A stretch of 64,000 bases of DNA from Escherichia phage ECML-4 (JX128257); one strand, 5' to 3'; shown: positions 29,997-52,124, counted from the first letter of the stretch. Notes: a model not told the origin generated them from the sequence alone. Made by a program: numbers and translations.

Positions 29997-30025
29997 CCTC
30001 ACTTTTATAAGCAAGGATATTTATA

Positions 30026-31261
30026 TCATCGTTTCAACAAAGACATGAGGTTTACACTGGTCGACTTCGGATTGTCATCTATCTTCCGGACGGGCATTTT
30101 CAGATTAGTGTAAACCTCAGATGGTTCCCAACGCGTACCCTGCTGCAGGTGCCAAATATGAAGAGGAACACCCGTCTCAAAGAACACAGGCATCTTCCAC
30201 TTCTGGACGCCAGGAACGTGCCCTGCAGGAGCTTTTTCGCATAACAAGGTATCTGGTAGCCAGAGGGAACGGGCTTCCCATAATGCCTTACAGGAGTACT
30301 CAGGCCAGATGCGTTCCATGTAGTCGATCTCATCCCAAGTACGCTCAGCATCCCACCCGATGTAACGAGTGTTTTTCAGACGGAAGAATTTCTTAAGCCA
30401 ACAAGCACCGGAAGTCTCAAAGTTCAAACGATTGATGAACGTGATGTGACCAAACTCGGCGACACAATCTTTGAATGCCTGTTCAAGATCAGCCTCAAGG
30501 ATGTCGCATTCTTCATCGGTGATAGGACAGCCGTTGATCTTTTTCTTTCCGTGCTTGGTCACCCAGTCGTCACGGTTTGACAAGAATGCCGCGCCGTTGC
30601 GGTTGGACTCACTACCATCACGGTCACGCAACATGAACCCAGGGACGTCGATCTGATACATGTTGCCGAATACCATGTTCAGGGCTTCCAGGAAGTTCCA
30701 GGCGCTCAGGCGACCGAAGTATTTCCATCCCATAGCCGTGTCCCATAGCTTAACGAATTGATCACTTTGCAGTTTAGTCTCCAACAACGGACGGAAAGCA
30801 TCCATCTGAGTACGACCAGCTAGCCAATCAATGTAGGACTGAACACACGGGATCATCTTCGATTTGCGATAGCGGCAATCAGTATCGAATCGCATACGCT
30901 CGAAGTTCAGGTTATACCAATCACAGAATCGCTTGAACTCTTGTGGTGACTGAGGCGGTACAGGAAACTCACTATAAATCGTCCATGGGCCAATCCCATT
31001 ATAACAACAGCCCCAAAGGAACGCCATCCAGATCTTGCGCTCGATCTTCTCAAGCTGTGTAATGCCTTCAGTGACTTCAATCGCATAATCCATCAGACGA
31101 ACTTGTTGGTTGTGTTCTTCCGTATACGACAGCGCCTCCACCCATGCTTTGAGCAGATACATCCGATTCTCTGGCTTACGATAATCGATTGACAAATCAA
31201 TTGGGTACTTCCATTCAGCCGGAGGCGTATAACCTGTCGGCATTTTAGATAGATGCGTCAT
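30026..31261 (-). CDS. hypothetical enzyme-sized protein (candidate DNA-modification enzyme)
   Basis: 411 aa, Trp/Cys-rich, no motif recognised; lies beside the P-loop kinase and HAD genes. Confidence 0.3.
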   Translation of the reverse strand: MTHLSKMPTGYTPPAEWKYPIDLSIDYRKPENRMYLLKAWVEALSYTEEHNQQVRLMDYAIEVTEGITQLEKIERKIWMAFLWGCCYNGIGPWTIYSEFPVPPQSPQEFKRFCDWYNLNFERMRFDTDCRYRKSKMIPCVQSYIDWLAGRTQMDAFRPLLETKLQSDQFVKLWDTAMGWKYFGRLSAWNFLEALNMVFGNMYQIDVPGFMLRDRDGSESNRNGAAFLSNRDDWVTKHGKKKINGCPITDEECDILEADLEQAFKDCVAEFGHITFINRLNFETSGACWLKKFFRLKNTRYIGWDAERTWDEIDYMERIWPEYSCKALWEARSLWLPDTLLCEKAPAGHVPGVQKWKMPVFFETGVPLHIWHLQQGTRWEPSEVYTNLKMPVRKIDDNPKSTSVNLMSLLKR

Positions 31262-31595
31262 CCTTCACCTCGGCTTCGAGTTGGATATCTTCAGGGTTTA
31301 AAACGGGCTGGCCCAAAGACCAAATTGGAAGGAACCGACGGTCATTGGATACTACCCAGATTTGCTTGGCGGTTTTCGTTTTTTCAGAAATATAATGCTG
31401 GGCATTAACCTGAGTCCGTGCCAGCCCAATTTGCCGCCATGCACCGAAATCTTTAGAAGATGGATTGGTGTTCAGCTGGAATTGGGGAATGATTTTATTC
31501 TGTTCCGGATAATATCGGACAGCGTTAATCATATTGGCATCGCCACGATAGTCAACAGCAATAGCAATGGCATTGCGTGGAATAAGAATTTTCAT
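31245..31595 (-). CDS. hypothetical protein
   Basis: start moved to the internal Met to abut the upstream stop. Confidence 0.35.
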   Translation of the reverse strand: MKILIPRNAIAIAVDYRGDANMINAVRYYPEQNKIIPQFQLNTNPSSKDFGAWRQIGLARTQVNAQHYISEKTKTAKQIWVVSNDRRFLPIWSLGQPVLNPEDIQLEAEVKDDASI

Positions 31596-31596
31596 T

Positions 31597-31800
31597 TTAA
31601 TTCCTTTTGAAACTTTCAATTATGTTGTAAACGAACGGCGTTAATAAAGCAACACCGCCCGAATAATATAACGCGTAAACATTCAATATTTCGGTTGAGT
31701 CTAATTCAACGATGCCCAAATATTTCATAACACCGACAAGCATAGCTGAAAAGCACATCACCAGACCGACGAACACAAAATATTTAGACATCTTTTTCAT
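31597..31800 (-). CDS. small membrane protein
   Basis: 67 aa, two hydrophobic helices. Confidence 0.35.
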   Translation of the reverse strand: MKKMSKYFVFVGLVMCFSAMLVGVMKYLGIVELDSTEILNVYALYYSGGVALLTPFVYNIIESFKRN

Positions 31801-31803
31801 TAT

Positions 31804-32718
31804 CTACGCCTTACGCATTAGCCCCAGAAGGGACACGGATGAGGTCTTTGGTTCTTCCTTGGCGACGGCCTTGTTTTTAGTTTTGGATGCCTTCTGCGGC
31901 TTCTCAGGCACTCTGTGAGCCAAAGGATCCTGACCGCCGACTTCACGCGTCATCGGATTGGTTTCGCAATAGCCGTAGAAGTCTTTCGACATCAGATTGT
32001 TAGCGCGGCAAACTGTGCCAAGCTGATGATAGATAGCATTACCCACCACCCACAACGGGGCGTCGAACGGCAACATAGCCAATTCGCTATCATTCCCAGT
32101 CTTGAATTCTTGGGTGTTCGTAGCCGTTTGGTGGTACAAAACGTCTTGCCCACTGTAATCATCCACGGCAACATTCCAGCCAAGCGCCAGCATTTCAGCC
32201 TTGGACTTCTCGAACTCCTTGGAGTAAGATTCGTTGCGCGACCAGCCGGAATCCCCCGCTTCTTTACCAGAGCGTCCACGGATGCGGGCATCGTACTGAT
32301 AGCGGTCTGGATATGCAAAGTACAGCAGCGCCAAAGAATCAATCGGATAGTTCTTGAACATCCATTCAGGACGCCACTTGTCCGACAGCATCAGGGGTTC
32401 GCCCTCACACACCAGGGTATATCCCTGAGCCAGCCAACCCTTGACGAGGTCGCGAGCAATATCCCCAGAGCCTGTGGCAGCATGAATGGCGTCCATAGAG
32501 GTCCAAGACGCCAGGCCGGATTTATTGGACACTGTGTATTGGCCGACGAAGATTAACTTCAGCTCTTCAAATTTCAGGCCGAAGGGGCGCGTCTTATCCC
32601 CAACAGTGTACGACAATTCAGTCGGCTTCAGCTTAGTGCGGAGCCACTCGATGAACTGTACGACACGAGTGCCTTTACCCGTGCCGCTGGTTCCTTTGAT
32701 TACGATGATCTTTGCCAT
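31804..32718 (-). CDS. P-loop nucleotide kinase-like protein
   Basis: N-terminal IVIKGTSGTGKGT, an NMP-kinase-style G-x-G-K-G-T P-loop; 304 aa. Confidence 0.5.
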   Translation of the reverse strand: MAKIIVIKGTSGTGKGTRVVQFIEWLRTKLKPTELSYTVGDKTRPFGLKFEELKLIFVGQYTVSNKSGLASWTSMDAIHAATGSGDIARDLVKGWLAQGYTLVCEGEPLMLSDKWRPEWMFKNYPIDSLALLYFAYPDRYQYDARIRGRSGKEAGDSGWSRNESYSKEFEKSKAEMLALGWNVAVDDYSGQDVLYHQTATNTQEFKTGNDSELAMLPFDAPLWVVGNAIYHQLGTVCRANNLMSKDFYGYCETNPMTREVGGQDPLAHRVPEKPQKASKTKNKAVAKEEPKTSSVSLLGLMRKA

Positions 32719-33023
32719 TATGCAGCATCCTCAATGCGCCAACTCACTCCACCCAACCAAGGTGCCCAAAACACGGCAACTTGCGGATGACCATTCTCAA
32801 CAAACTTCACTTTATACTGGTCATCAAAGTTATAGAAAATTTCGTCGTCATCAGGTGCCATACCGTTTTCAATCAGAACTCGTTTTAATTCCAACGCTGC
32901 GCCAACGGAAGTTGGTGGATTCTGATTACGGATGAAGTTGTTTACATGGATAATGATACCATCCATATCACTGTCACCGGAACGCTTGTCAGGGCTTTCT
33001 ACAACTTTATTTTGTTCTTGCAC
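32718..33023 (-). CDS. hypothetical protein
   Basis: 101 aa ORF, 1-nt overlap. Confidence 0.35.
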   Translation of the reverse strand: MQEQNKVVESPDKRSGDSDMDGIIIHVNNFIRNQNPPTSVGAALELKRVLIENGMAPDDDEIFYNFDDQYKVKFVENGHPQVAVFWAPWLGGVSWRIEDAA

Positions 33024-33032
33024 GATGTGCTC

Positions 33033-33875
33033 CTATCGGACATATTGATAATGAGAAACCAGGCGATTCACCACTTCATCGAGGTTACGATTTAAGAAGT
33101 CAAAGTGGTTTTGGCCTTCTACATGCTTAATATAAAGCATATCCTCGCAATTCGAAAGATCCAGTTTTTCATAATTGCCCTGAGGGACGAAGATGACGAA
33201 GATGTTATTCAGGGCACACGGCTCAACATACTTCGGATTGTCGTCGATCAGGACATCGCCAGCAAGCAGATGCTTTTCATCCGTGCTCACGAACCCATTA
33301 ATCAACGATTCAAAGTGATGGTATATGAACTGACGCTTGCTGCGTTCGTGTTCCGGTTCGCATTTTGTAACTGCCACCATTTCCACTTGCTCAAACTTCT
33401 GAAGGAGAGCGGCCTTTAAATTCGTAAGGAATTCAACAGCCCCTGGCAGTGGTGACATTCTGGAATACAGATCAGGCATACGCCACCAATCCATCGGATC
33501 ACGTCCTGTTGGCGAATCCATCCACTGACCAGCAACGAATACACGGCGCGTTAACCAGGCCGGATGCGCGCGTTCACGCATGAGGATCGCCAGATCACCA
33601 GCGTGTGACATATAACACTCTTTGGTGATTGGTTGAAATTCAGATGGGTAGTCGTGACATCCCATATTTTCCGCAGCGGCTTTAGAATTAGAAATATTGA
33701 ACCATTCAACCCACGGCGATAGGGAATCAACCAGAGTCAAATCCACATCCACCAGAACGCGATATAACCCGCCAATTTTAGAACATGCGTCATACAGACC
33801 AACGTGATTATTCATCAGATTTCTCCACATTGTCATAACCCGTTGCGGTGCATTGTTCTTCAGTGCAATCGGCAT
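33033..33875 (-). CDS. HAD-superfamily hydrolase (5'(3')-deoxyribonucleotidase-like)
   Basis: HAD motif I in LVDVDLTLVDS (DxDxT), late DVLIDD; start probably an internal Met because the ORF 5' end overlaps the upstream gene. Confidence 0.5.
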   Translation of the reverse strand: MPIALKNNAPQRVMTMWRNLMNNHVGLYDACSKIGGLYRVLVDVDLTLVDSLSPWVEWFNISNSKAAAENMGCHDYPSEFQPITKECYMSHAGDLAILMRERAHPAWLTRRVFVAGQWMDSPTGRDPMDWWRMPDLYSRMSPLPGAVEFLTNLKAALLQKFEQVEMVAVTKCEPEHERSKRQFIYHHFESLINGFVSTDEKHLLAGDVLIDDNPKYVEPCALNNIFVIFVPQGNYEKLDLSNCEDMLYIKHVEGQNHFDFLNRNLDEVVNRLVSHYQYVR

Positions 33876-34170
33876 ACAGAACCACAGAAGATTCCTTCAC
33901 GTAAGTGGTACAGTGATAGGTTTCATCTTCCTGGATGGAATCATCATAATTGCAAACAGTTTGCAACGGACCAGGAGTGGTGTTGTCCAAAGCTGCATGT
34001 GCCTTGATGGTGTCTTCCATCTTATTCACCGCTTGCTGATTGGTGAACGTCGGCGCATCGAGGTCAACAGTAGACGCAACGTCCAGAAGGGTAGAGCATG
34101 CAGTGGTAGAGAAAGCCAGAGCACACACCAGAAGAATCTTATTGAGTTTCATAACAATACCTGTTGTCAA
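33808..34170 (-). CDS. putative secreted/lipoprotein
   Basis: signal-peptide-like MKLNKILLVCALAFSTTACSTLL with Cys after the hydrophobic core; several further Cys. Confidence 0.4.
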   Translation of the reverse strand: MTTGIVMKLNKILLVCALAFSTTACSTLLDVASTVDLDAPTFTNQQAVNKMEDTIKAHAALDNTTPGPLQTVCNYDDSIQEDETYHCTTYVKESSVVLYADCTEEQCTATGYDNVEKSDE

Positions 34171-34212
34171 AGGGATAACAGGGGGAATTATATCCCCCTT
34201 TGTTTTATTGAA

Positions 34213-37209
34213 TCAACCTTTCTTGCCCATCATGGACAACAGATTAACTCGACGTTTGTGAGACCAACCAACCACGTCTAGAATAGACTGAATCGGCTCT
34301 ATGAAGGTCTTTTCAAACGTGGTGTGGTAATCTACCCACTTATCCAGCCCCAACTCCGGAGGGAGGAAGTCAGGGAAGGCTATGCGGTCGTTCCCCACAG
34401 GGTTCCCAGGTTTCAGGTTAATGATTTTAACCTTATCGCCAGATTCTATCGGCGGGAGACCGAGGTCTTCATGCTTGTCTATCAGCTTGTTGTACATAAT
34501 ACAAGCCTTGGCAGCAAAGTGTGTGCCACTGATATAATTTCCGTTGCCGTCTAACCACTTCTCAATATCACTAACGCCAGAGGCTTGAGCAATATCATCC
34601 ACGGTTAATTCCATATATTCCTTCTTATAACCCGCGATCAATTCCTGAACTTCAGCCTCCGTCCCCAGCAGAACTTTCTCATAGCATTTAACCAGACGCT
34701 CACGACACCATTCCGGCGTTGTAGATTTACGCGCTTCCAGACCTTTGAATTTTATCTTTGGCTTCTCATACTTGATGCCTTCGCTATCGTATACTGCCAT
34801 GCAATACATCTTCTTGGCTCGCCATACAGCAGACGATGCGATGACCTCACGTTCCCAGACCATGCGCTGCTCAAACCCGTTCATGGTATTACACAACAAC
34901 TGCGCCCATTCACTGGTTTTTGGCTGGTAATTCTCTTTGATCCATTGGTCAATGTTATCAACGAGTTTGTGATGATCCTTTTCTTCAGGCCACAATTGCT
35001 TGACCAGACGTTCAATGCAAATGTAGTTGGAGTCAGTATCACCCGCGATAACAAAATCCTGACCAGTAGTGCCGCAAAGTTTGTTCAGATAATCATCGGT
35101 GTGGCGTTTGTTCCATTTGTTGATCAGCTGGCCGGAAGTGGTGATTGCTTCAGCGATGTTGATGTTGAAGTATTCTTTAAACCAGACGTTGGAGATTGCG
35201 CCATAACCTGCGTTCATCAAGATCTTCAGACCTTGTTGTAACGTGTCTTGAGCAACCCCCAGATCTTCCCACTTGTGCATGACTTCAGTCAGGTGATCAA
35301 GATCGATGTGCTTGTGTTCTTCATACCATTCAGGATCGTAGAAACGAGACTTCATGGCGGATTCAAGGTGGAAATCACCTTTAGACATTTCCTTACACCA
35401 ACCAGCCCATTGCTCATACTTCAGGCCAGTTGCTTTCTCTCCTTTACGGTCAGCGTATATGCCTCGCATAATTTCGGAAAGGAAGGACATCTTCTCATTA
35501 CTGAAGAACTGAACGTTCGGGGTAAACGAAACGTTATATCGGCGTAGTGTTTCAAAATGGAATTCGCCCAGCGCGACCAATTCATCAACAACTTGTATGC
35601 GTTCATCAATAGCACGCTGCAACTTGTCGTGAAGATTTTTGAGATGACGACGTTTATTCATCGGCGTTGTCATATCATTCATCGCTTTGGTCAATTCCTC
35701 ACACATGGCCTCAATAATATCACGGCGGGTGTGCTTATCAGAAACGATAGTCTCTGGACCAAGGTTGTATTGCTGTATGATGTGGGGATACAGGGAGTTT
35801 AAGTCCTCAGAGAAGACCCAGAAATATATCCCTGGTGCAACCTCCATGACATATGCGCCTTCAAAATCTGTTGGCCCATCATAGACGCGCTGGATTTTCG
35901 GGACAATCCCCTTCTCATAAAGACGATAATAACACATCGCCAGCCACGGCGCTACAGTGCCGAGACCGTCTTCATAGTTGGATTTAGTGCGATAAGCCAA
36001 TACAAACATCAGCTGTATCAAACGCAGTTTTTGTTCTAAGCGCCACACCAGCTTGACGTCTTTGATACCATATCGCGTATGCTTGCAATAATCATTGAAA
36101 TAAAGGTCATACAATGATTTGCTTTCACTATAATCCAACTTCTTCTCACCGAGTTCACAATAAGCGATCCAGTCCAGTGAGTATTTTTCACGGGTGGTGT
36201 AAGTGTGTTTCTTGTACACTTGCATGTAGTCCATCATTGGACAACCCACAAACTGATAAGACGTGACGTCGCCTTTACGGTCTTTGATGAAACGTTTCTT
36301 CAGTTTACCCCAAGGACTGAGACGTTGGGCTTCAGATTCACCAAGAACCTGCGTAATTCGTTCAACCAAATAGGGGCTATCGAACGTTTCAATGTTCCAC
36401 CCAGTCCAACCGTCAAATTGACGCTGCGACCAGTAATCCAAGAAGGCGCGAAGCAGATCTTGTTCCGTCGTATATTCTTTATATTCAACCTCAAGACCGC
36501 CGACTTCTTCATCATTGGGGTCATATTTGAATTTATGGCGATCCTTGGAACACGGCATGCCCCAGACATAGAATTTATTGGTATTCATATCTTGGAGCTG
36601 TATCAGCGTAATAGGGAACGCCGCATTCATGTTCTGTGTGATTTTACCGTTACTGTCAATTATAGGGAATTGGTCAGTCACGTTGTTGGAAATAAAGGAA
36701 CCAGGGAAATGCTCCCGAACGAAATCATGGTTGGCCAGTACTTGCTTATGGAAACGACGAACCCGCGCCTCGCTGCCTTTAAACGTGTGAGATTCAATCG
36801 TTGCGTGTGGGAATGGACCTTTAGTCATTTCTCCGTCACGCCAACCAGCCGAGAACACTTCGATATCCACGTTGGCGATGTGGATATTTGAATAATCAGG
36901 TGTGATCATCCCAGGAAAACTATGGGCGATGAATTGATATGCATAATCCGTTTGTCCATACACCGCAGCCCCTTCGACCTCCTTGTACTCCTCAAGATAG
37001 TTGTCAGCGTCGCGCATTGATGCAAACTTTTTAGACACCAACGGTTCGTTGAGGAGGCCAATCTTTTCAACTTTGGAATAATCAGCTGTGGGTAAATACA
37101 AGGTGGGTTCGAATTTCTTACGCAACATGCGGCGATTGCCGTTGTCGTCTGCGATACGAATCAGAAGGTCGTTACCCTGTCGGGCAACGTTCGTATAGAA
37201 AACAGTCAT
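34213..37209 (-). CDS. family B DNA polymerase (T4 gp43-like)
   Basis: Exo I NVDIEVF, motif A DLNSLYPHI, motif C AGDTDS; start set to ATG 37209 (MTVFYTN) preceded by GGAGA SD. Confidence 0.9.
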   Translation of the reverse strand: MTVFYTNVARQGNDLLIRIADDNGNRRMLRKKFEPTLYLPTADYSKVEKIGLLNEPLVSKKFASMRDADNYLEEYKEVEGAAVYGQTDYAYQFIAHSFPGMITPDYSNIHIANVDIEVFSAGWRDGEMTKGPFPHATIESHTFKGSEARVRRFHKQVLANHDFVREHFPGSFISNNVTDQFPIIDSNGKITQNMNAAFPITLIQLQDMNTNKFYVWGMPCSKDRHKFKYDPNDEEVGGLEVEYKEYTTEQDLLRAFLDYWSQRQFDGWTGWNIETFDSPYLVERITQVLGESEAQRLSPWGKLKKRFIKDRKGDVTSYQFVGCPMMDYMQVYKKHTYTTREKYSLDWIAYCELGEKKLDYSESKSLYDLYFNDYCKHTRYGIKDVKLVWRLEQKLRLIQLMFVLAYRTKSNYEDGLGTVAPWLAMCYYRLYEKGIVPKIQRVYDGPTDFEGAYVMEVAPGIYFWVFSEDLNSLYPHIIQQYNLGPETIVSDKHTRRDIIEAMCEELTKAMNDMTTPMNKRRHLKNLHDKLQRAIDERIQVVDELVALGEFHFETLRRYNVSFTPNVQFFSNEKMSFLSEIMRGIYADRKGEKATGLKYEQWAGWCKEMSKGDFHLESAMKSRFYDPEWYEEHKHIDLDHLTEVMHKWEDLGVAQDTLQQGLKILMNAGYGAISNVWFKEYFNINIAEAITTSGQLINKWNKRHTDDYLNKLCGTTGQDFVIAGDTDSNYICIERLVKQLWPEEKDHHKLVDNIDQWIKENYQPKTSEWAQLLCNTMNGFEQRMVWEREVIASSAVWRAKKMYCMAVYDSEGIKYEKPKIKFKGLEARKSTTPEWCRERLVKCYEKVLLGTEAEVQELIAGYKKEYMELTVDDIAQASGVSDIEKWLDGNGNYISGTHFAAKACIMYNKLIDKHEDLGLPPIESGDKVKIINLKPGNPVGNDRIAFPDFLPPELGLDKWVDYHTTFEKTFIEPIQSILDVVGWSHKRRVNLLSMMGKKG

Positions 37210-37270
37210 TGTTTGTCTCCGGTTAACCGTGCCGTCAGCACGTCCCCGTAATTTAACCGAGGAACGTTCA

Positions 37271-37861
37271 ATGACCAAGGAGTTTAAAATGGCAATCCCC
37301 TTTGTGAGCATGATTCCAGGGGCGCTAAAGCAACTCTGGAATCTTGGGACTGATTTGGTGCAATATAAGCGGGAAATTGTTCAGGCTAAACACGATGTTA
37401 AACTGGAGGCAATAAAGTCTTCTTCAGAATGGGAACTTTCTAAGATTACCGAAGTCGGCGGATCTTGGAAAGATGAATTCTGGACAATCGTTTTGGCTGT
37501 TCCCGCTATCCTTGTTATGATCGCTCCGGTTGTGGAACTTCTAATGTTCCCCACCGAGTATCATAAAGGGGATTTCATCAAAGCAGTAATTGATGGTATG
37601 CAAGCCCTTGAAACAGCGCCTGATTGGTATACTGCTTCGCTATTGACAGCAATTAGTGCATCATTCGGTATCAAGGGGTACAACCATTACAAAAGCAATA
37701 GCCGGAAGGCGCAAGCTGTGGATGCTCTCAAACAGTTTGGGGTCAAAGTGGTTAACAAAGATCCCACTGTTGTTACTCAGTCGGGTTCTCCCGATCTTGA
37801 GTCTGCTCCCCCAGCTGGGTCTACTGCGACCTCTGGTGCGTGGCCTGATCTGAAGAAATAA
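37271..37861 (+). CDS. membrane protein
   Basis: start at ATG 37271 (GAGGA SD); TM helix FWTIVLAVPAILVMIAPVVELLMF; terminator at 37868. Confidence 0.45.
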   Translation: MTKEFKMAIPFVSMIPGALKQLWNLGTDLVQYKREIVQAKHDVKLEAIKSSSEWELSKITEVGGSWKDEFWTIVLAVPAILVMIAPVVELLMFPTEYHKGDFIKAVIDGMQALETAPDWYTASLLTAISASFGIKGYNHYKSNSRKAQAVDALKQFGVKVVNKDPTVVTQSGSPDLESAPPAGSTATSGAWPDLKK

Positions 37862-37867
37862 GTTCAA

Positions 37868-37890
37868 GGGGAGGAAACTCCCCTTCTTTT
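37868..37890 (+). terminator. rho-independent terminator
   Basis: GGGGAGGAAACTCCCC hairpin followed by TTCTTTT. Confidence 0.6.
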
Positions 37891-37901
37891 GGTGTTAGGG
37901 A

Positions 37902-38114
37902 ATGAAAGTGGTAAACAAGAGATTGCTCGTCACCCAAGGCGGGGCGACGATAGTACGTGGACGGATATATGAACAAACCAAGCTGGGTGATCATAAGACT
38001 CGTCTGACGGTTAAAGCCCCCGACGGCGGTTGGCCAACAAAGGTGATTGTCCCAGACGGCCTCATAGAACGAGGGACGGCGACGTATAAGGGTGCAGAGT
38101 TCAAAATTTATTAA
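37902..38114 (+). CDS. hypothetical small protein
   Basis: 70 aa ORF. Confidence 0.35.
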   Translation: MKVVNKRLLVTQGGATIVRGRIYEQTKLGDHKTRLTVKAPDGGWPTKVIVPDGLIERGTATYKGAEFKIY

Positions 38115-38131
38115 AATATTTATTGAATAAA

Positions 38132-38160
38132 GTTTACTTCTTCAATAACTGGCGTATACT
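38132..38160 (+). promoter_or_regulatory. candidate sigma70-type early promoter
   Basis: GTTTAC (38132-38137), 17-bp spacer, TATACT (38155-38160); about 50 nt upstream of ATG 38210. Confidence 0.3.
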
Positions 38161-38209
38161 TCTAATTGTAGTACGAACAAACAACAATCTGAAGAGAAGG
38201 AAATACATC

Positions 38210-38767
38210 ATGGCAATCGAAATTATCGCTCAATCAAAATCAGGCAAGACTGTAATGTACGGCACTGAAGAAGGCCGCTGTATCATCAACTACGGCACTA
38301 TCACTGGCGAGTCTCCAGAGAAAGGTGGTCGCTATCTGGTTGAGTACGGTTCACGCCTGCTAATGGTAAGCAAAGTCGATGGTCGTGAAATCATGATTCC
38401 TCGTAAAGAATACTTTGACTCACGCTCTGCCGCGATGACTTTCTTCCTCTTCCAGAAACGCCACGAACTCTTCGTTGAAGCGAAAGACGCAGGTCTGGAC
38501 GACGCGACGGCTGAGCTGATTGCCGAAGGTAAAATGACTCTCGAAGCTGCTCTCGGAGACATGGATTGCGAAGCCGAAGCACATTATATTGAATATTCCG
38601 CATATCAGAACGAATGTGAAGATGATCCGGAAGACGACGGATTCGACCCTGACCTCCACGGCGGCGAAGACGATAACACCCCTTCCTTAGAAGTTCTGAT
38701 GGCTGGCGGCCAGGCCGCTTGGGAATGGCAGAACGAGAAGAACGCCTGGCTGGATTCCCGTATCTAA
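38210..38767 (+). CDS. hypothetical protein with acidic C-terminus
   Basis: start at ATG 38210 preceded by AAGGAAATACATC; C-terminal ECEDDPEDDGFDPDLHGGEDD. Confidence 0.45.
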   Translation: MAIEIIAQSKSGKTVMYGTEEGRCIINYGTITGESPEKGGRYLVEYGSRLLMVSKVDGREIMIPRKEYFDSRSAAMTFFLFQKRHELFVEAKDAGLDDATAELIAEGKMTLEAALGDMDCEAEAHYIEYSAYQNECEDDPEDDGFDPDLHGGEDDNTPSLEVLMAGGQAAWEWQNEKNAWLDSRI

Positions 38768-38815
38768 TTGACTGAAGCCCCTTCGGGGGCTTACTTTGAA
38801 CTGAAGGACTATATC

Positions 38816-38968
38816 ATGATTTTAATCTTATGGTTTGTATTCACATTTCTGGCCATGGCCGACATCGGCAAGTATCACGTTCTCCCAAGCGACCTGACCG
38901 TCCTACTATACGGCATAGTTTCGTTTGTGCTGGGTTCCTTGCGCGCCCATATGAGGACTATATCATGA
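38816..38968 (+). CDS. small membrane protein (50 aa)
   Basis: MILILWFVFTFLAMADIGKYHVLPSDLTVLLYGIVSFVLGSL; initiation context AGGACTATATCATGA. Confidence 0.35.
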   Translation: MILILWFVFTFLAMADIGKYHVLPSDLTVLLYGIVSFVLGSLRAHMRTIS

Positions 38969-39510
38969 GCACCCCAAAAACTCCTGTCCGTATCGCTGTT
39001 GAGCCTCTGCTGGTTGATGCTGAGAATGCTGCTGAGCAGTACGCGAACAAAGTCATCAAGAACATAATGGACGATCTGGCCTCCAACGACTGGGACGTCG
39101 AGAAGTGCGCTCCGTGGCCGTCTTCGGTTGGCGTCAAGTTTGGTGATCCAGATTACCAACGAATGAAATCAAAACACGCACTCTACCGTTCTTTGACCCA
39201 GGCAGTGAATCCTTCTTACACACCTGGGAAGCCGGATATTGTCAAAGCTGATCCTGAGCGCCATGCTCTGTTTGTCAAGGAAGCACGTCGAAACGCCGCG
39301 ATGCAGTATGAGTCTTTCATTTGTAAACTGGAAAACAAAATTGGTGGTCACAGCGCGGCTGTACTGAATGGTTCCCATGTATGGGGTTATTCAATCCTGA
39401 CCGTGACTACACCAGAGGGGATCGAGCGCTGGAAGACTCAGACGATTATCAATGTGTCCAAGCTGGGCAAACTCTTTAACCAATATCCAACGAGGAAGGT
39501 GAAGGAGTAA
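38965..39510 (+). CDS. hypothetical protein
   Basis: start at ATG 38965 with the same AGGACTATATCATGA context; ATGA overlap with upstream stop. Confidence 0.45.
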   Translation: MSTPKTPVRIAVEPLLVDAENAAEQYANKVIKNIMDDLASNDWDVEKCAPWPSSVGVKFGDPDYQRMKSKHALYRSLTQAVNPSYTPGKPDIVKADPERHALFVKEARRNAAMQYESFICKLENKIGGHSAAVLNGSHVWGYSILTVTTPEGIERWKTQTIINVSKLGKLFNQYPTRKVKE

Positions 39511-39521
39511 AATTAGAACAA

Positions 39522-39544
39522 CAAAGGGGCTTAATGCCCCTTTG
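39522..39544. terminator. bidirectional terminator between convergent genes
   Basis: CAAAGGGG-CTTAATG-CCCCTTTG hairpin with T-rich flanks on both strands. Confidence 0.5.
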
Positions 39545-39545
39545 T

Positions 39546-40004
39546 TTATTTCCCATCCCAAAAGTCGTCTTCATCGTCTACTTCATCAAACGCAGAATCC
39601 AATTCTGCGTCAGAGTACTCTGGTAGACGACCATTCTGTTTCAGATATTCAATTTCGTCATCTTCCAATTGAAGATCCGTTGCTATAAACAGCGCTCCGG
39701 TCTCTTCATCATGTTCAATGCTATAAGACGTATATTCAGAACCCTGAACTGTAATGATGATAGATGTTGGATCTTCTGGATCCACGTGAGCTTCAAACGG
39801 GATACCGTCAATTGGGGCGTCTTCTAAGAATGTTGCAAGGGCTACGGCAGCGCGGACAACATCCGTACCCTGTACCGATGCATAAATTTCTTCTGCGCCC
39901 GTTTCCCCGCGCTCAAAGAATTCAATCGTAGTTCCGTCTTGAACCCCAGTCCAGATAGGCATATCTGCTGGTGTATCGGCTTCAAATAATTTTGAAATTG
40001 GCAT
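39546..40004 (-). CDS. highly acidic protein
   Basis: 152 aa, very Asp/Glu-rich with few Lys/Arg. Confidence 0.45.
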   Translation of the reverse strand: MPISKLFEADTPADMPIWTGVQDGTTIEFFERGETGAEEIYASVQGTDVVRAAVALATFLEDAPIDGIPFEAHVDPEDPTSIIITVQGSEYTSYSIEHDEETGALFIATDLQLEDDEIEYLKQNGRLPEYSDAELDSAFDEVDDEDDFWDGK

Positions 40005-40039
40005 GTTCGTTTCCTCTATGGATAAACCTTATGGGATAT

Positions 40040-40489
40040 TTAGGCTTCTCTCTTCGCCAGCCCTGGTTTGAATACCACCATTTCTTCTACGTTATTGGCA
40101 CTCATAGAGGCTATGGAATCGAATCCTTTATTGATAAGTTCCTTCACATTATCGTGAATCTTACCAGGTTCTATCCCCAACTCACGCATTTTGTTTTCCC
40201 AAACAGAAACGTTATTAGAATCTATTACCAGAGTCTTCTTGGCCTTAACACGAAATGCCATGACAACAGGTTCACCAGATTGACGATAGCGAACGGCGTT
40301 TTCCGCGTAGATCTGCGCTTTTTCTGGATCCCCTGTCAGGTAAAATCCAGCACCCATCGTACCAGAGTCAGTCTGGCCAAATTTTTCAAAATCAAAGACG
40401 TCGAATTCAACATTCGACCCATGATATAAAACAATATCCGTAAAATCGGGCAATGTTGATTCACGATAGAATTCTAGGAAGGTTTTCAT
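40040..40489 (-). CDS. ADP-ribosyltransferase-fold protein (PARP-like H-Y-E class candidate)
   Basis: LYHGSN (H-G-S), GAGFYLTGD (G-x-G-x-Y-F/L), IYAEN, later NNVEEMVVF resembling the PARP catalytic-Glu strand; 149 aa. Confidence 0.4.
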   Translation of the reverse strand: MKTFLEFYRESTLPDFTDIVLYHGSNVEFDVFDFEKFGQTDSGTMGAGFYLTGDPEKAQIYAENAVRYRQSGEPVVMAFRVKAKKTLVIDSNNVSVWENKMRELGIEPGKIHDNVKELINKGFDSIASMSANNVEEMVVFKPGLAKREA

Positions 40490-40528
40490 GGATACCCCAC
40501 ACTTGCTGTATGGGGTATTTAGGAGGGA

Positions 40529-41722
40529 TCAATCAGGGGTAAACTCGTTCACAGGAACTTGTTCCGGCATAGACAATTCGGGGCATGCTGCCTTCATTGG
40601 CTCAATATACGGCTTGCTACCAACAATCCAGAACAGAGCGTTTTCGTTGAGCAGTTCTGGCTTATGCTGTTGGATCCAGGTCATGACCTTGCCTTCATAG
40701 CGAGGATGCAGCTCAATATCACCCCACTGATAATCCATCAGGTCATTATAGCGAACCCAATTCGTTGTATGCAAATCCCAATGGTGTACTGCAAAGCGTG
40801 GGAGCGTTATCTCCGGCTCTCCCTTCTCGCGGATACCCATCAGGAGGCCAGCCAGCGAAACGCTCTTAGAGGCATGCTGAAGATCCTTCTTACCATACAC
40901 ATAATCTGGGTTGTCGTGATAGCAACGAGTGAAATCCGTTATGTGCGGAAGATTAGCTTGTTTTCCAATAATACGCAAACGGCTTTCAATAAAGTCCAGA
41001 CGGTTGGGACCAATCCCGATCAGATATACATTTTTCAGATTTGGTTTCGGGTGCATTGCCAGCCCTGTCAAAATGCTGGTACAAGAATTACATGAACCAG
41101 CAGGAATGATCAGATCTGTGATATGGTCCGGAATGTTAGCAACCTGCTCGCCGCCCAGCATATGAAATCCTGCAATCCTCTCCGGAGAATGCAACGTATG
41201 ATCCAGAGTGATCCCATACTCTAGATAATATGCTTTTGGATTCTGCTGCTCAATCAATTTCTTGCAGCGCGGCTGGATAGTGCTGTTGTAACCCGAACCG
41301 ACAAAGTTGAATTCGCTGCCGAACCAGGCGCTCATCTTCACCATGTCATGGTTCATACACGTGGTGGGTTTGGTAGCGCCCAGGACTGTAGTTGTCTTGC
41401 CGCCGAAATGCCGTGAGACTGCCGTCGCCATAGGGGACTGCGGACTACCAACGACTGTACCATGGATAAGGTCTGGGGAGCCTCCGGCCTTTAAATGCTC
41501 AACCATCAGCCAGATGGCCTGACGAAGTTTACTGCCGTTGATGCCCTGCTTGCCATCTGTATAGTTGGACAGCGGCGCGAAGTAATCTTCACGCTTGAAC
41601 CAGACCTGTTGATTGGTTTCAGGGTTGGCAACGAGTTCACACGGGGTGTGCTTGTAGAGGTAGTCTTCCCAGTGGACCAGGTTGCGGTCGAGGGAAAGTG
41701 TATCGAAGATGGACTTGTTCAT
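40529..41722 (-). CDS. PLP-dependent enzyme, fold type II (ACC-deaminase/D-cysteine-desulfhydrase-like)
   Basis: GINGSKLRQAIWL resembles the G-N-K-x-R-K-L PLP-lysine motif; Gly-rich loop VGSGYNST; 397 aa. Confidence 0.5.
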   Translation of the reverse strand: MNKSIFDTLSLDRNLVHWEDYLYKHTPCELVANPETNQQVWFKREDYFAPLSNYTDGKQGINGSKLRQAIWLMVEHLKAGGSPDLIHGTVVGSPQSPMATAVSRHFGGKTTTVLGATKPTTCMNHDMVKMSAWFGSEFNFVGSGYNSTIQPRCKKLIEQQNPKAYYLEYGITLDHTLHSPERIAGFHMLGGEQVANIPDHITDLIIPAGSCNSCTSILTGLAMHPKPNLKNVYLIGIGPNRLDFIESRLRIIGKQANLPHITDFTRCYHDNPDYVYGKKDLQHASKSVSLAGLLMGIREKGEPEITLPRFAVHHWDLHTTNWVRYNDLMDYQWGDIELHPRYEGKVMTWIQQHKPELLNENALFWIVGSKPYIEPMKAACPELSMPEQVPVNEFTPD

Positions 41723-41791
41723 TCTATTTCTCCTGTAGACATTGGCTTATCATAGCGTATCTACAGGAGTATAGAAAAGGAGAATCTCGGG

Positions 41792-42475
41792 TTACTTGGT
41801 CAGAAAATCCATCAGGCGGCGGAAAAACGATTTGCGTGAGTCACTCACCTTCGGAGGATACTGAAGGATGGGTGGAAGTTCAGGATCCACACCAACAGGC
41901 GCTCCCTGATCGTTCAGAACACGACTGGCTGGTGGAGTCGGTGGAGTCGGCTTCAAAGATTTGATCGCCTGATTCAGATCGGAATTGTCCACAACACTCG
42001 CTTCTTCAGCCACAGAAACACACGGCTTGATTAAAACAGATTTCTTGGACTGCTCATACTGATGAGCGATATCTAGATATTTCTTGCGCTCAGCGTAGAA
42101 ATCTACGTTCTTAACTTTACGGCGGCGAGCAGTAGAACTCTCTTCACCATAAAAGTCATATCCATTTTTGAACATCCAATTCACTGCTTGCTCAAATGAA
42201 TTGAATACCATATACAGGCCGCGCCGCCCGTTGACCATATCGTCTTCGCTGGAATAACCGATGAACACCGCTTGGCCTTTCTTGTTCAGATCAAATGGGG
42301 TGCAGACGCCCGTATCATCTAGGGAACGCGGTGCTAGGTGCCCGTCTCTGTAAATGTAAGCCGGATACAAGAACTCATTCAGAGTGCGCTTGTTGCCTTT
42401 ATATGTGTACAGACGAGCAAATGGAGGCAGATCACAAACAACATCATTGTAATCCCAAATTGTTACATTGCGCAT
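41792..42475 (-). CDS. hypothetical protein
   Basis: 227 aa ORF; Pro-rich C-terminal segment. Confidence 0.4.
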   Translation of the reverse strand: MRNVTIWDYNDVVCDLPPFARLYTYKGNKRTLNEFLYPAYIYRDGHLAPRSLDDTGVCTPFDLNKKGQAVFIGYSSEDDMVNGRRGLYMVFNSFEQAVNWMFKNGYDFYGEESSTARRRKVKNVDFYAERKKYLDIAHQYEQSKKSVLIKPCVSVAEEASVVDNSDLNQAIKSLKPTPPTPPASRVLNDQGAPVGVDPELPPILQYPPKVSDSRKSFFRRLMDFLTK

Positions 42476-43599: not shown

Positions 43600-43675
43600 T
43601 GGTTGCTTCAACTGGATTCGAACCAGTGACCTCTCCCTTATCAGGGGAACGCTCTACCTACTGAGCTATGAAGCA
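43600..43675 (-). tRNA. tRNA-Ile (anticodon GAT)
   Basis: hand-folded cloverleaf: acceptor TGCTTCA/TGAAGCA, D stem GCTC/GAGC, anticodon stem TTCCC/GGGAG with loop CTGATAA, T arm ACTGG-TTCGAAT-CCAGT, CCA encoded. Confidence 0.8.
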
Positions 43676-43678
43676 ATT

Positions 43679-43767
43679 TGGCGGAAGGTGAAGGATTCGA
43701 ACCTTCGGGGGCTAAAAGCCCCACTCGATTAGCAGTCGAGTCCCTTAAACCTCTCGGGCAACCTTCC
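43679..43767 (-). tRNA. tRNA-Ser (anticodon GCT), type II
   Basis: acceptor GGAAGGT/ACCTTCC, anticodon stem CTCGA/TCGAG with loop CTGCTAA, long variable arm, T arm GAAGG-TTCGAAT-CCTTC, CCA encoded. Confidence 0.8.
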
Positions 43768-44052
43768 GTATACTGCGCCTCGGTCAAGAATTTTCCAAGC
43801 CATGACCTAAATCTGGGTTCTTGACCTGACCGAGCGTAATTTGGACGGGCTTCACACCCGATTGTGCATTTGATCTGCCGTAGCCCAACTCCCCGCGCCG
43901 AAGCGCCGATTGGTTAACTGGCACCAGTGCCTTCTGGTTCGATCTCCTGTAACTTTACAGGCTTTGCGCCCGACCATTTCTGGAAGTTGAGGCATCGTTC
44001 CCGATGTGGAGTCCCCTCATTTTACACAGCTGGCTGCAACGCTTACTGTGTT

Positions 44053-44136
44053 TGGTGTGAGTGGATGGATTCGAACCACCGCGCTGTTACGGGGAGATTT
44101 ACAGTCTCCTGCATTCGACCGCTCTGCCACACTCAC
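44053..44136 (-). tRNA. tRNA-Tyr (anticodon GTA), type II
   Basis: acceptor GTGAGTG/CACTCAC, anticodon stem GGAGA/TCTCC with loop CTGTAAA, 12-nt variable region, T arm GGTGG-TTCGAAT-CCATC, CCA encoded. Confidence 0.75.
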
Positions 44137-44392
44137 ATTTGGTCTACCACCACGTGCTGGGCCACGCTCGAGGACATCGGCCATCCTTCCTCAGCTAATC
44201 CACGCGGCGGTAGATTTAGATCAGAGTGTACGGTGTAGCATTCCGCAGGGGTGCACCTACTGTAGCCCTTTCACTCTGAAATTGTATGAAGTAGGTCTCA
44301 CTCCCCTGGGTATCTGTATCCTGCAGCCTTACATTGGCAGCTATCGCGCGATTCGCACTTCCGAAGGCGCTTCGAGATACTCTACTTCAATT

Positions 44393-44468
44393 TGGCGACG
44401 ATGGCAGGACTTGAACCTGCGACATATGGATTAACAGTCCACCGTTCTACCGACTGAACTACATCGTC
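44393..44468 (-). tRNA. tRNA-Asn (anticodon GTT)
   Basis: acceptor GACGATG/CATCGTC, D stem GTTC/GAAC, anticodon stem GTGGA/TCCAT with loop CTGTTAA, T arm GCAGG-TTCAAGT-CCTGC, CCA encoded. Confidence 0.8.
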
Positions 44469-44469
44469 A

Positions 44470-44670
44470 TTATCCGTGCTTGTTTGCTTCAATTGCCCTT
44501 AATTGAGCATCAGCGTCAGCTTTGGTGTCATGTGTCCCAAGAACCTTCGTCTTGGTGTGGTCAAGGACAACCCACTTGTCGCCTCGCTTTTCAACAAACT
44601 CAACAATCTCTTTGTTGTCGGTAGCGAGGCCATCCCACTCAGCAAGAAACTCACCGAACGTTTTCATCAT
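44470..44670 (-). CDS. small hypothetical protein embedded in tRNA cluster (66 aa)
   Basis: track ORF begins with TTG; more likely start is the ATG-ATG pair at 44670 preceded by GGTGAG. Confidence 0.35.
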   Translation of the reverse strand: MMKTFGEFLAEWDGLATDNKEIVEFVEKRGDKWVVLDHTKTKVLGTHDTKADADAQLRAIEANKHG

Positions 44671-44787
44671 ACTCACCAATTGTTTATTGAACAACTGGTT
44701 TATTTAGGTGCTCCCGAGGCGGTATTTTAATCCCGCGATCCCATCTCGCCTGCCGTAGACCAGAGCATGCTGACAGTCCAACATATT

Positions 44788-44863
44788 TGGTGACCCTGGC
44801 TGGACTTGAACCAGCGACCAATCGATTATGAGTCGACTGCTCTAACCACTGAGCTACGGGGCC
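44788..44863 (-). tRNA. tRNA-Met (anticodon CAT)
   Basis: acceptor GGCCCCG/CAGGGTC (one C-A mismatch), D stem GCTC/GAGC, anticodon stem GTCGA/TCGAT with loop CTCATAA, T arm GCTGG-TTCAAGT-CCAGC, CCA encoded. Confidence 0.7.
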
Positions 44864-44971
44864 AAAATTGGCGGGGTCTGAGGCTTTTCACCTCACCTGC
44901 TGGATTGGCCTCCAGCTGTTCTCTCTGGGGACTCGCTGTCCGGACAGCTATCCCTTAAACTATCGCCCCTT

Positions 44972-45086
44972 AATTCATATTGCTGTGGGTAATACCAAAG
45001 CGGAGGTTTGGAATCTCTCGCCCTATAGCGACCTTTAAACCGTTTGATCAGTCCGATCCAAAGGACTACCCACAGCAATATGAATT
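44972..45086. repeat. 20-bp perfect inverted repeat flanking a 75-nt loop
   Basis: AATTCATATTGCTGTGGGTA (44972-44991) and its exact reverse complement (45067-45086); a 14-bp palindrome GCTGTCCGGACAGC lies just upstream (44935-44948). Confidence 0.8.
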
Positions 45087-45293
45087 TGTTGTGTCCAATC
45101 AAGGACTGTCAACCTTTTATCCCGTTTGTGCATGATCAGTTCATGCAGGCCTCTTTGTGCGCCTCACGGCAACGCGCTTCTGTAGGTCATTGACTTGCAC
45201 CGTAGTCTCACCACAGGCGTTTATTTTTCCAGGGCTTTCCACTTACAAGTCTTAACCAGATCGGGATACGGGCTTGTAAGATCAGATTGGACA

Positions 45294-45371
45294 CAACTTT
45301 GATGGCTCTAGGACTAAAGATCCCGCGTCACCCATAGACTTGGTTTATAAAATCTAGAGCCATCAAAGTTG
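45294..45371. repeat. 18-bp perfect inverted repeat flanking a 42-nt loop
   Basis: CAACTTTGATGGCTCTAG (45294-45311) and CTAGAGCCATCAAAGTTG (45354-45371); an 8-bp hairpin CTTACAAG/CTTGTAAG lies upstream (45242-45280). Confidence 0.8.
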
Positions 45372-45750
45372 CAACCAATGTCGCAACTCGCACTTCAGCG
45401 TCTTCGTCTCGCTTCAGCACTTGTCCTCTACGCTCGGACCAAACGAGGCTGGCCGACAGAAACATGACACCACTCATCACTAGAGCGAGGATGTGGTTGA
45501 TAGCCACGATGCTATATCTCTGTCGCAGAGTGATCACACTTGTCAGGATGATCACTGTTTTGCGAACTTGAAAATACTGCGCCTGTCTCGGGTTTCCCCT
45601 TAGTTCGGCCTCTCATTGTTCGTCTAGTCAGGGAGCTACCCTTGATGACCAGCTTATTTTGAGATCTTCGCCAGCACCCACTAGTGTCTAGAATATGTAG
45701 GTGTCGAGGTCTGCAAGGCATTGCCCTATTTCATACAACGCTCTCTCAAG

Positions 45751-45888
45751 TACGCAAATCGAAGTTCTCTGGGCTTAACAGGTTCGACCCAACATGTTGT
45801 ATATCGCCTAACTTGCTCATGGGACGGACACATCTGTGTACAGACCTTGAGGGTTAAAAGATATACCCAGAGAACTTCGATTTGCGTA
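45751..45888. repeat. 23-bp perfect inverted repeat flanking a 92-nt loop
   Basis: TACGCAAATCGAAGTTCTCTGGG (45751-45773) and CCCAGAGAACTTCGATTTGCGTA (45866-45888); loop contains a T-loop-like GGTTCGACC. Confidence 0.8.
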
Positions 45889-46477
45889 GCCCTTCACTTG
45901 CCAAAGATCAGGGCTAATAACAAGACTTCGCTCACATCTTTGAGGGCACTCAGTGTACAACAGGCTCCGATATTTCATAGGGCATTACTGCCTCGGATTT
46001 AAGTTGCCTTTCTCCTGAAACTCCATGCAGTCTCGCGTCTGACGCGGAATGCCCTCAAAGATGTGGAGCCGTTTTAGGGAGTCGAACCCAAATGCTTGGC
46101 CAGCGCTGACCTTACATCCCATCTGACTTAGGCAACCCACCTCTGCTTACTCAGGAGCTTATCCCCTTTGGACAGTCAGATATAACGGCTTTGGGATTGG
46201 AGGAAGGACTCGAACCTTCTCATGTACGCTCCTGATTTCTCAGAAGTAGCCTGCTCCCATCGACCTATTAAGTACACGCTCCGCTCATTGTTCGGCGGGA
46301 GCTTATTAATCACACCCTCCCGCCTATTGTTAGTGCGCCGAATTTTGTTATGAGGAATCGGAAGACCTCACTGGTGTATGGCTATTAAGCTACTGCCAGG
46401 AACGTGTTATCATTAGCGATTATTTTTGTGGTCAGTTTCTAAAAACCCGCAAAGTCACGCACAACGAAAACGAAAAC

Positions 46478-46542
46478 CTGTTTGAGTCCTAAACCTACCT
46501 GTCTTGGTCTCACATCGCTATGAGTGGCCAGGACTCAAACAG
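46478..46542. repeat. 13-bp perfect inverted repeat flanking a 39-nt loop
   Basis: CTGTTTGAGTCCT (46478-46490) and AGGACTCAAACAG (46530-46542). Confidence 0.7.
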
Positions 46543-46617
46543 CTTGCCGTTCAGTGAGTTAACTATACTTTGTAACCCGTTATTGATAAAACCTTTTATT
46601 TTTGTTGACGAGGGTGT

Positions 46618-46718
46618 GGAATCGAACCACACTTCTGAGCGCTGCCCCGTGTCACCAATGCACCACCTCACCATCGATTTGCCGGAACTTACGCATCCGG
46701 CCTCGTCCTGTCGGTGTT
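46618..46718 (-). ncRNA. tRNA-like element (perfect 7-bp acceptor stem plus canonical T-arm, non-canonical 101-nt body)
   Basis: GACGAGG (46618-46624) pairs perfectly with CCTCGTC (46712-46718); T-arm-like GTGTGG-AATCGAA-CCACAC at 46625-46643; no standard anticodon arm could be folded. Confidence 0.3.
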
Positions 46719-47902: not shown

Positions 47903-48265
47903 TTCCTGAGCCTCGTCAAATTAATTAAATGTCCCCACTATTATATTGGGAATATGTTTATTGAATATAACCCCAAGAAAGGCCAATAAAATAATGACAG
48001 CGATTATTAATAGGTAAAAACTACTTTTCTACAACATCAAGAAACTGTATCTTAACGCGGTGCCCTTCGAGTTGTGAGTGTTAACGAACAACGAGAAGCA
48101 GCCTCCATGGCTGCGGAATGGGACTGCCTGTCAAGGCGGTGTTACGAGCGAGGGCGTCAGCCCCCTCGCGAGTATATTCGAATAAATTAACGCGCGAGAG
48201 CGTTTTGATTCCCTTTGGCTAAATATCTTCAACACCATATTCAAACTCAGGTGATGGAGATTATC

Positions 48266-50885: not shown

Positions 50886-50887
50886 AA

Positions 50888-52078: not shown

Positions 52079-52082
52079 AACT

Positions 52083-52120: not shown

Positions 52121-52124
52121 ACAA

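Follow-up and report, generated by a model that had tools for sequence, protein, structure and literature searches.

We analyzed a 64,000-nucleotide stretch of the genome of Escherichia phage ECML-4 (JX128257), here called the window, and within it a region of about 12 kb (30026-41722) around the gene for a family B DNA polymerase. We are highly confident that this region encodes the post-replicative half of the 5-(2-aminoethoxy)methyl-2'-deoxyuridine (5-NeOmdU) pathway of ViI-like (Kuttervirus) phages, in which thymidine in DNA is hypermodified. Three genes on the minus strand carry this reading: a 5-hydroxymethyluracil DNA kinase (5-HMUDK, "kinase 2") at 31804-32718, a serine:DNA transferase at 30026-31261, and a fold-type-II pyridoxal phosphate (PLP)-dependent decarboxylase at 40529-41722. 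Their products are 100%, 100%, and 97% identical to gp243, gp247, and gp226 of Salmonella phage ViI (Vi01). The system is already known: papers of 2018 and 2021 on ViI (Lee 2018, PNAS; Lee 2021, NAR) described the pathway with its intermediates and the three enzymes, of which the kinase and the transferase have exactly the same protein sequence here. A prediction made from the DNA alone had placed four open reading frames (ORFs) here, for a kinase, a 411-amino-acid (aa) protein, a PLP enzyme, and a HAD hydrolase (33033-33875), and had likened them to the post-replicative thymidine hypermodification set of Vi01-like phages. All four lie where it put them, on the minus strand, and the identity of the three enzymes to ViI proteins upholds the likeness.

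By its sequence, the window is part of a ViI-like Kuttervirus (Ackermannviridae) genome. A megablast search of a phage collection with positions 30000-42000 of the window matched 282 records, 182 of them with at least 80% query coverage, and nearly all of the listed matches were Ackermannviridae phages of Salmonella, Escherichia, Klebsiella, and Dickeya. Over these 12 kb, Salmonella phage vB_Hercules_SET was the best DNA match (99.3%), and ViI, with 98.9% identity over the same interval, belongs to the group of best matches. Since the arrangement recurs in 182 records at this coverage, the grouping of the genes is not due to chance. The window is collinear with positions of about 118337-157061 and then 1-25275 of ViI, on the reverse strand. 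For protein identities, window ORFs and ViI genes were translated and then aligned. The notes of the ViI record give orf00247, orf00243, and orf00226 for the counterparts of the transferase, kinase, and PLP genes, with RefSeq accessions YP_004327568, YP_004327565, and YP_004327553. Table 1 of Lee 2021 lists the same accessions as the serine:DNA transferase (gp247), the 5-hydroxymethyl-2'-deoxyuridine (5-hmdU) DNA kinase (gp243), and the PLP-dependent decarboxylase (gp226).

The kinase, an orthologue of ViI gp243 (Vi01_196), is identical to it at all 304 aligned residues. It matches the Pfam family HMUD2 (PF18747, "5-hmdU DNA kinase 2") with an E value of 5.6e-169 and 561.4 bits against a cut-off of 25, and the match is full length, with residues 1-303 aligned to profile positions 1-298 of 298. 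A P-loop (Walker A) motif, GTSGTGKGT, occupies residues 9-17, as expected for the P-loop kinase predicted here. In ViI, the 5-HMUDKs gp243 and gp67 transfer one phosphate from ATP to the 5-hmdU base in DNA to give 5-phosphomethyl-2'-deoxyuridine (5-PmdU), where a pyrophosphate had once been proposed (Lee 2021). By its identity to gp243, the kinase of the window would likewise phosphorylate 5-hmdU in DNA to 5-PmdU.

The 411-aa protein, which the original prediction had left uncharacterised, is instead an amino-acid:DNA transferase of aGPT-Pplase clade 2, identical at all 411 residues to Vi01_199, that is, ViI gp247. Residues 49-292 match Pfam ADDT (PF18724, "amino acid:DNA transferase") with an E value of 3.2e-58 and 197.6 bits against a cut-off of 26.2. 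Purified ViI gp247 adds free L-serine to 5-PmdU, and isotope labelling together with a synthetic N-linked standard identified the product as O-serinyl-thymidine (O-SerT); a conserved Cys and a conserved Glu are essential, as both the Cys-to-Ala and the Glu-to-Ala mutants were inactive (Lee 2021). The catalytic Cys and neighbouring Glu of the window transferase are assigned entirely through its identity to gp247. An exocyclic methylene intermediate is backed by trapping experiments on gp51, the homologue from phage M6 (Lee 2021). The transferase of the window is thus predicted, from its ViI counterpart, to swap the phosphate of 5-PmdU for the side-chain oxygen of L-serine. A pyrophosphorylase-type transferase had been predicted for this region; the transferase is present, but its substrate is monophosphorylated and not pyrophosphorylated (Lee 2021). 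In PDB sequence searches, none of the three DNA-modifying enzymes found a match at an E value of 0.01 or below, and NCBIfam had no match for any pathway protein.

The third enzyme, an orthologue of ViI gp226 (Vi01_182), is 397 aa long and 97% identical to the ViI protein over 395 aligned residues. It did not reach the Pfam gathering threshold for PALP (31.1 bits against 35; E value of 2e-7), and the PDB sequence search was empty, so its fold was checked independently by AlphaFold2 structure prediction and a Foldseek fold search. The model, built with 61 homologues, had a pLDDT of 91.2 and a pTM of 0.90. Its Foldseek matches were D-cysteine desulfhydrase (4d8t; E value of 9.4e-12), 1-aminocyclopropane-1-carboxylate (ACC) deaminase and its homologue 1j0a (1.7e-9), serine dehydratase, and CysM. 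All matches belong to the same class, and the model confirmed the protein as a fold-type-II (tryptophan synthase beta-like) PLP enzyme, in agreement with the prediction. On the evidence of the model, the PALP miss is a matter of a family too divergent for the Pfam threshold, and the fold test settles the point.

The catalytic lysine of this enzyme can be placed by comparison with ViI. Lys65 lies in an NGSKLR motif and is invariant across the 61-homologue alignment, and it corresponds to Lys92 of gp226, the 27-residue offset being equal to the length difference between the two proteins. In Lee 2021, Lys92 is the proposed Schiff-base lysine, and the gp226 protein, once purified, was yellow with absorbance at 410-425 nm and decarboxylated O-SerT to a 301-u nucleoside identical to native 5-NeOmdU. 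We infer the same O-SerT decarboxylation for the 397-aa form from these assays, which were made on the 424-aa ViI protein.

Relative to ViI, the window gene starts at the same ATG and has 81 nucleotides (27 codons) fewer after about codon 3, in frame, followed by a short diverged patch that suggests recombination beside the length difference. Of 263 related records, 170 have a contiguous short-form junction (Det7, Maynard, and Dickeya phage phiDP23.1 among them), and the PHROG profile of the family, at 392 positions, is short as well; we conclude that the short form is the commoner one and that ViI carries an insertion. A truncated or damaged enzyme is ruled out by the shared ATG, the in-frame difference, the contiguous records, and the short profile. 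Two forms thus exist among related phages, one of 397 aa (Maynard, Det7, phiDP23.1) and one of 424 aa (ViI, Guerrero, vB_Sen_ST2), which differ at 41630-41722 on the minus strand. Directly downstream of the PLP gene, the product of 40040-40489 (minus strand) matches the ADP-ribosyltransferase-like families ART-PolyVal (PF18760, 9e-11) and DUF3990. Its counterpart in phage Guerrero is annotated as a "putative N-acetyltransferase". An acetyltransferase that further modifies the base, as in PaMx11, was considered for this gene and ruled out, as the matches are to ART-PolyVal and DUF3990 and not to an acetyltransferase.

The structural matches of the PLP model, led by D-cysteine desulfhydrase and ACC deaminase, also fit a different reading, that the proteins are ordinary small-molecule enzymes: a threonine/serine ammonia-lyase or D-cysteine desulfhydrase in one case, and a guanylate kinase or homing endonuclease in the other. 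Source annotations as "threonine ammonia lyase", "guanylate kinase", and "putative homing endonuclease" point the same way. Sequence identity between the PLP enzyme and these structural matches is only 14-16%, no NCBIfam metabolic family was matched, and distant homologues are embedded in hypermodification clusters. The identical or near-identical ViI proteins produced 5-PmdU, O-SerT, and 5-NeOmdU on DNA substrates, and this in vitro reconstitution refutes the metabolic reading for ViI. We consider it hardly credible for the proteins of the window.

The pathway we propose would begin with the synthesis of phage DNA containing 5-hmdU instead of T, through pool-level enzymes; of these, the window would contribute only a dCMP deaminase, with a MazG-like NTPase and the HAD nucleotidase as possible additions. 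The P-loop kinase would then phosphorylate the hydroxymethyl group of a subset of 5-hmdU in duplex DNA to give 5-PmdU. The active-site Cys of the transferase would attack C6 and the phosphate would be expelled, leaving an exocyclic methylene to which the side-chain hydroxyl of free L-serine would be added to form O-SerT. Finally, the PLP enzyme would use Lys65 to bind this serine at its free alpha-amine and would decarboxylate it to 5-NeOmdU. The modified base would replace about 40% of T and block many restriction endonucleases.

The three enzymatic steps on DNA, from phosphorylation to decarboxylation, were rebuilt in vitro from purified enzymes of ViI (Lee 2018, Lee 2021), and the near-complete identity of the window proteins to those enzymes leads us to infer that the steps operate in this phage as well. 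ViI-like phages first replicate with 5-hmdU fully replacing T, and the 5-hmdU is later converted, in sequence-specific contexts, to the hypermodified base or to thymine (Lee 2021). In ViI and the related phages CBA120, CBA6, and 1.255.O, a nucleoside of 301 Da takes the place of about 40% of T, and ViI DNA resists about 71% of the more than 200 type II restriction enzymes tested.

The pool-level part of the set is represented most clearly by the dCMP deaminase (6349-6870, minus strand), a Vi01_030 homologue that is 99.4% identical to the ViI protein and matches Pfam dCMP_cyt_deam_1 (1.4e-17); the prediction had listed such an enzyme elsewhere in the window. By analogy with the pathway of 5-hydroxymethyluracil (hmU) phages, it would supply dUMP for a pre-replicative 5-hmdUMP pathway. 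The prediction had also listed a MazG-like NTPase. The candidate, an all-alpha NTP pyrophosphohydrolase at 16820-17398 (minus strand) homologous to Vi01_011, has a match to PHROG 1247, "MazG-like pyrophosphatase" (6.5e-37), and an ExxE...ExxD motif at residues 33-56, which speak for the call, and it has no Pfam match. It is 81% identical to Vi01_011, where most other compared genes are 97-100% identical to ViI, and looks like a replaced or fast-evolving patch. Tentatively, the protein is possibly a pool cleaner of the dTTPase/dUTPase type.

The HAD protein (33033-33875, minus strand), a Vi01_194 homologue with a likely start at Met21 (33815), is identical to the ViI protein at 260 of 260 residues. 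As the prediction of a HAD hydrolase required, it contains HAD motif I (DxDxT) as DVDLT at residues 43-47, and it matches Pfam NT5C with 33 bits against a cut-off of 24.8; the match covers residues 130-220 and only positions 56-143 of the 180 in the profile. Its best sequence match in the PDB is human mitochondrial 5'(3')-deoxyribonucleotidase, at an E value of 0.014. Judged by these matches, the protein is a divergent NT5C-type 5'(3')-deoxyribonucleotidase of the HAD superfamily, and family membership alone makes its most likely role that of a dTMP/dNMP phosphatase that clears dTMP from the pool before replication. Its membership in the hypermodification set did not hold up: the protein stands outside the demonstrated pathway and, if involved, would act in preparing the nucleotide pool. 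Full-length homologues occur in related large phage genomes, and partial ones in Vibrio, Aeromonas, and other large phages.

These three proteins can be compared with the Bacillus hmU phages SPO1, SP8, and phi-e, which replace dTTP by 5-hmdUTP before replication and, unlike the ViI type, stop at 5-hmdU. The enzyme classes of the hmU stage are dCMP deaminase, dTMPase, dTTPase, and dUMP hydroxymethylase (Lee 2021). The dCMP deaminase, the NT5C-like HAD protein, and the MazG-like protein of the window would fit three of these four, with the HAD protein as dTMPase and the MazG-like protein as dTTPase by enzyme class only.

The remaining ViI genes of the system were sought by tblastn, and ViI gp67, the ThyA homologue (orf00066), the dnk product, dUTPase, gp160 (aGPT-Pplase1), and a second MazG-like protein had no match within the 64-kb window. 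Their ViI positions, 36-39 kb and 87-89 kb, fall beyond the part of the genome that the window covers, and from relatives we assume that the dUMP hydroxymethylase, gp67, and gp160 are located elsewhere in this genome. Of the five genes that went into the 2018 lysate reconstitution (Lee 2018), three are thus present in the window, along with only one clear pool-level enzyme, the dCMP deaminase. The hypermodification gene set that had been predicted stands for its three DNA-modifying enzymes and is partial, as gp67, the ThyA-like hydroxymethylase, dUTPase, and gp160 were missing from this tblastn search of the window; a complete ViI-type 5-NeOmdU system is not contained in it.

Several points weigh against the assignment of the region to the 5-NeOmdU pathway. 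The dUMP hydroxymethylase, the second kinase gp67, and gp160 were not found in the window by tblastn. Compared with the assayed 424-aa ViI protein, the PLP enzyme lacks a 27-aa N-terminal segment and has 12 substitutions. The match of the HAD protein to NT5C is weak and partial, with the PDB match at only 0.014, and its partial homologues occur in phages that are not known to modify T. Operation of the pathway in the DNA of this phage itself is deduced from the ViI proteins.

Between the HAD gene and the transferase gene lie three small genes on the minus strand, each with a close ViI counterpart. The DUF7254 protein (32718-33023; Vi01_195 homologue, identical at 100 of 101 residues; Pfam DUF7254, 3.3e-47) has a stop codon that overlaps the kinase start by 1 nucleotide. 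A 67-aa ORF (31597-31800), identical to Vi01_197 at 67 of 67 residues, has no Pfam match. Between kinase and transferase, the small conserved protein phrog_4163 (31245-31595) is identical to Vi01_198 at 116 of 116 residues and belongs to PHROG 4163 (7e-69), a family of unknown function. The tblastn matches of DUF7254 were only to large phage genomes (about 150-166 kb, plus one short fragment), as were those of phrog_4163 (about 150-168 kb, plus one short fragment), and the listed examples are Ackermannviridae. These searches were also meant to show whether the two proteins travel with hypermodification genes in other phage groups; as both turned up in related genomes only, their conserved position is indistinguishable from inherited gene order.

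The tight packing of these genes on one strand, from polymerase to transferase, and the preservation of their order in about 260-280 related phage records matching each gene would fit a second reading, in which the HAD protein acts on DNA after replication, perhaps together with DUF7254 and the two small ORFs. They might, for example, dephosphorylate unintended 5-PmdU or help to convert the remaining 60% or so of 5-hmdU to thymine. The account in Lee 2021 of 5-hmdU conversion to the hypermodified base or thymine leaves room for this, as the passages describing it name no ViI enzyme for thymine formation or for the selection of sites. The nearest relatives of the HAD protein, though, are mononucleotide phosphatases, no reductase-like domain appeared among the Pfam matches, and the co-occurrence of DUF7254 and phrog_4163, which tblastn found only in related large genomes, is indistinguishable from inherited order. 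Purified kinase, transferase, and decarboxylase are enough to make 5-NeOmdU in vitro, so the intervening genes are not required for the chemistry. We regard such post-replicative action as improbable, and it is similarly doubtful that any of the HAD protein, DUF7254, the 67-aa ORF, or phrog_4163 forms part of the pathway by directing the choice of the roughly 40% of sites by the kinase or the conversion of the remaining 5-hmdU to thymine before packaging.

The polymerase gene (34213-37311, minus strand; Vi01_190 homologue) is the first of the run that ends with the transferase. Its product is 98.9% identical to the ViI polymerase, matches Pfam DNA_pol_B_exo1 (4.4e-17) and DNA_pol_B (3.2e-14), and, by analogy with what is established for hmU phages, would incorporate 5-hmdUTP at replication. 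After it, DUF7292, the HAD gene, DUF7254, the kinase, the 67-aa ORF, phrog_4163, and the transferase follow on the minus strand, spaced by -8 to +60 nucleotides when ViI-type starts are used. No strong terminator-like site was found inside the run from polymerase to transferase. The PLP gene forms a separate minus-strand block, and between it and the polymerase block sits a divergent plus-strand cluster with a strong terminator-like hairpin at either end (37866-37885 and 39520-39546); both hairpins are two-way, with a T-run following on each strand. Promoter-like sites were not enriched (25 against 21.9 in shuffled sequence); with counts so close to shuffled sequence we draw no conclusions on promoters, and the transcription units are putative.

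That the polymerase gene and a plus-strand cluster with two-way terminators lie between the PLP gene and the kinase block bears on the possibility that proximity to the polymerase has no functional meaning and reflects inherited order of a dispersed pathway, nucleotide-metabolism genes being scattered in Ackermannviridae. The pathway genes of ViI lie in three places (36-39 kb, 87-89 kb, and 140-152 kb), and a 2024 review describes such a scattered organisation. On the other side, the kinase and transferase are on one strand and within 1.5 kb of each other, and the same families are tightly clustered in distant phages. We see an even chance that inherited order is the whole explanation of the proximity, and it is compatible with the 5-NeOmdU pathway assignment. 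The original prediction had spoken of a gene set flanking the polymerase; this closeness amounts to conserved gene order rather than a demonstrated functional need.

Comparison with known systems places the region closest to the ViI pathway itself, with which it shares genus, gene order, and the HMUD2 and ADDT families. The differences from ViI are allelic: the 397-aa form of the PLP enzyme, the MazG-like protein at 81%, and a neighbouring gene at 39546-40004 (minus strand). That gene, a homologue of Vi01_184 ("putative structural protein"), is 86% identical to its ViI counterpart, where its neighbours are 97-100% identical, and lacks a significant match in Pfam. The tail-spike and tail-fibre region (44000-64000) is mosaic, as deposited records cover at most 89% of it, with matches in 4-10 pieces. 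This coverage marks the phage as a distinct Kuttervirus isolate with mosaic tail spikes, and the mosaic fits the swapping of host-range modules.

The 5-NedU pathway of Pseudomonas phage M6 employs the gp54 kinase, the gp51 glycine:DNA transferase, the gp53 radical-SAM isomerase, and the gp52 PLP decarboxylase. It has in common with the ViI type the logic of a kinase, an amino-acid transferase, and a PLP decarboxylase acting in turn on 5-hmdU DNA. In M6, glycine is N-linked and the radical-SAM isomerase acts before decarboxylation, whereas in the ViI type serine is O-linked and no isomerase is used. No radical-SAM gene was seen among the domain matches of the region.

More distant PLP homologues, on metagenomic phage contigs, adjoin HMUD2, ADDT, HMUDK_hel, ThyA-like, dUTPase, and YfbR-like genes. 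One 63-kb JGI metagenome contig (L008) carries, at 9175-13946, a Tet_JBP dioxygenase, a PLP enzyme, ADDT, one small gene, and a radical-SAM gene, with no HMUD-kinase Pfam match recorded nearby. Such a cluster may belong to a variant pathway in which oxidation of T yields 5-hmU in DNA. On an 84-kb JGI metagenome contig (L009), positions 8323-15838 carry dUTPase, one gene, HMUD2, a PLP enzyme, a 393-aa protein with no recorded domain, and HMUDK_hel, and then one gene, a ThyA-like gene (Thymidylat_synt), one gene, a YfbR-like HD-domain protein, one gene, and a PolIII-alpha polymerase. A third contig (L010) has the order HMUD2, PLP, one gene, and HMUDK_hel. YfbR is a 5'-deoxynucleotidase. No homology links the YfbR-like protein of L009 to the HAD protein found in ViI-like phages; by analogy it gives a weak hint that a nucleotidase is a usual companion of the pathway.

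Two further features of the window lie outside the region. Five tRNA genes were found by ARAGORN at 43600-44863 on the minus strand (Ile-GAT, Ser-GCT, Tyr-GTA, Asn-GTT, and Met-CAT), a set that differs from the one annotated in phage Guerrero (Leu, Ser, Asn, Trp, and Met). A gene at 9243-9905 (minus strand) is annotated as "QueC-like", and the matches of its product to QueC, ThiI, MnmA, and argininosuccinate synthase are limited to the N-terminal PP-loop ATP-binding motif at residues 25-90. By these matches, the product is a PP-loop ATPase, and 7-deazaguanine synthesis is without support.

The practical value of the assignment lies in the annotation of public records. In records of ViI-like phages, the gp243 kinase appears as "guanylate kinase" or "putative homing endonuclease", the PLP decarboxylase as "threonine ammonia lyase/deaminase", DUF7254 as "putative thioredoxin", and some pathway genes as "hypothetical"; the kinase gp67 is listed in RefSeq ViI as "terminase small subunit". 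With the post-replicative enzymes of the 5-NeOmdU pathway encoded around its polymerase, the DNA of this phage would be expected to resist many restriction enzymes, and modification-sensitive sequencing chemistries may be affected by its modified bases.

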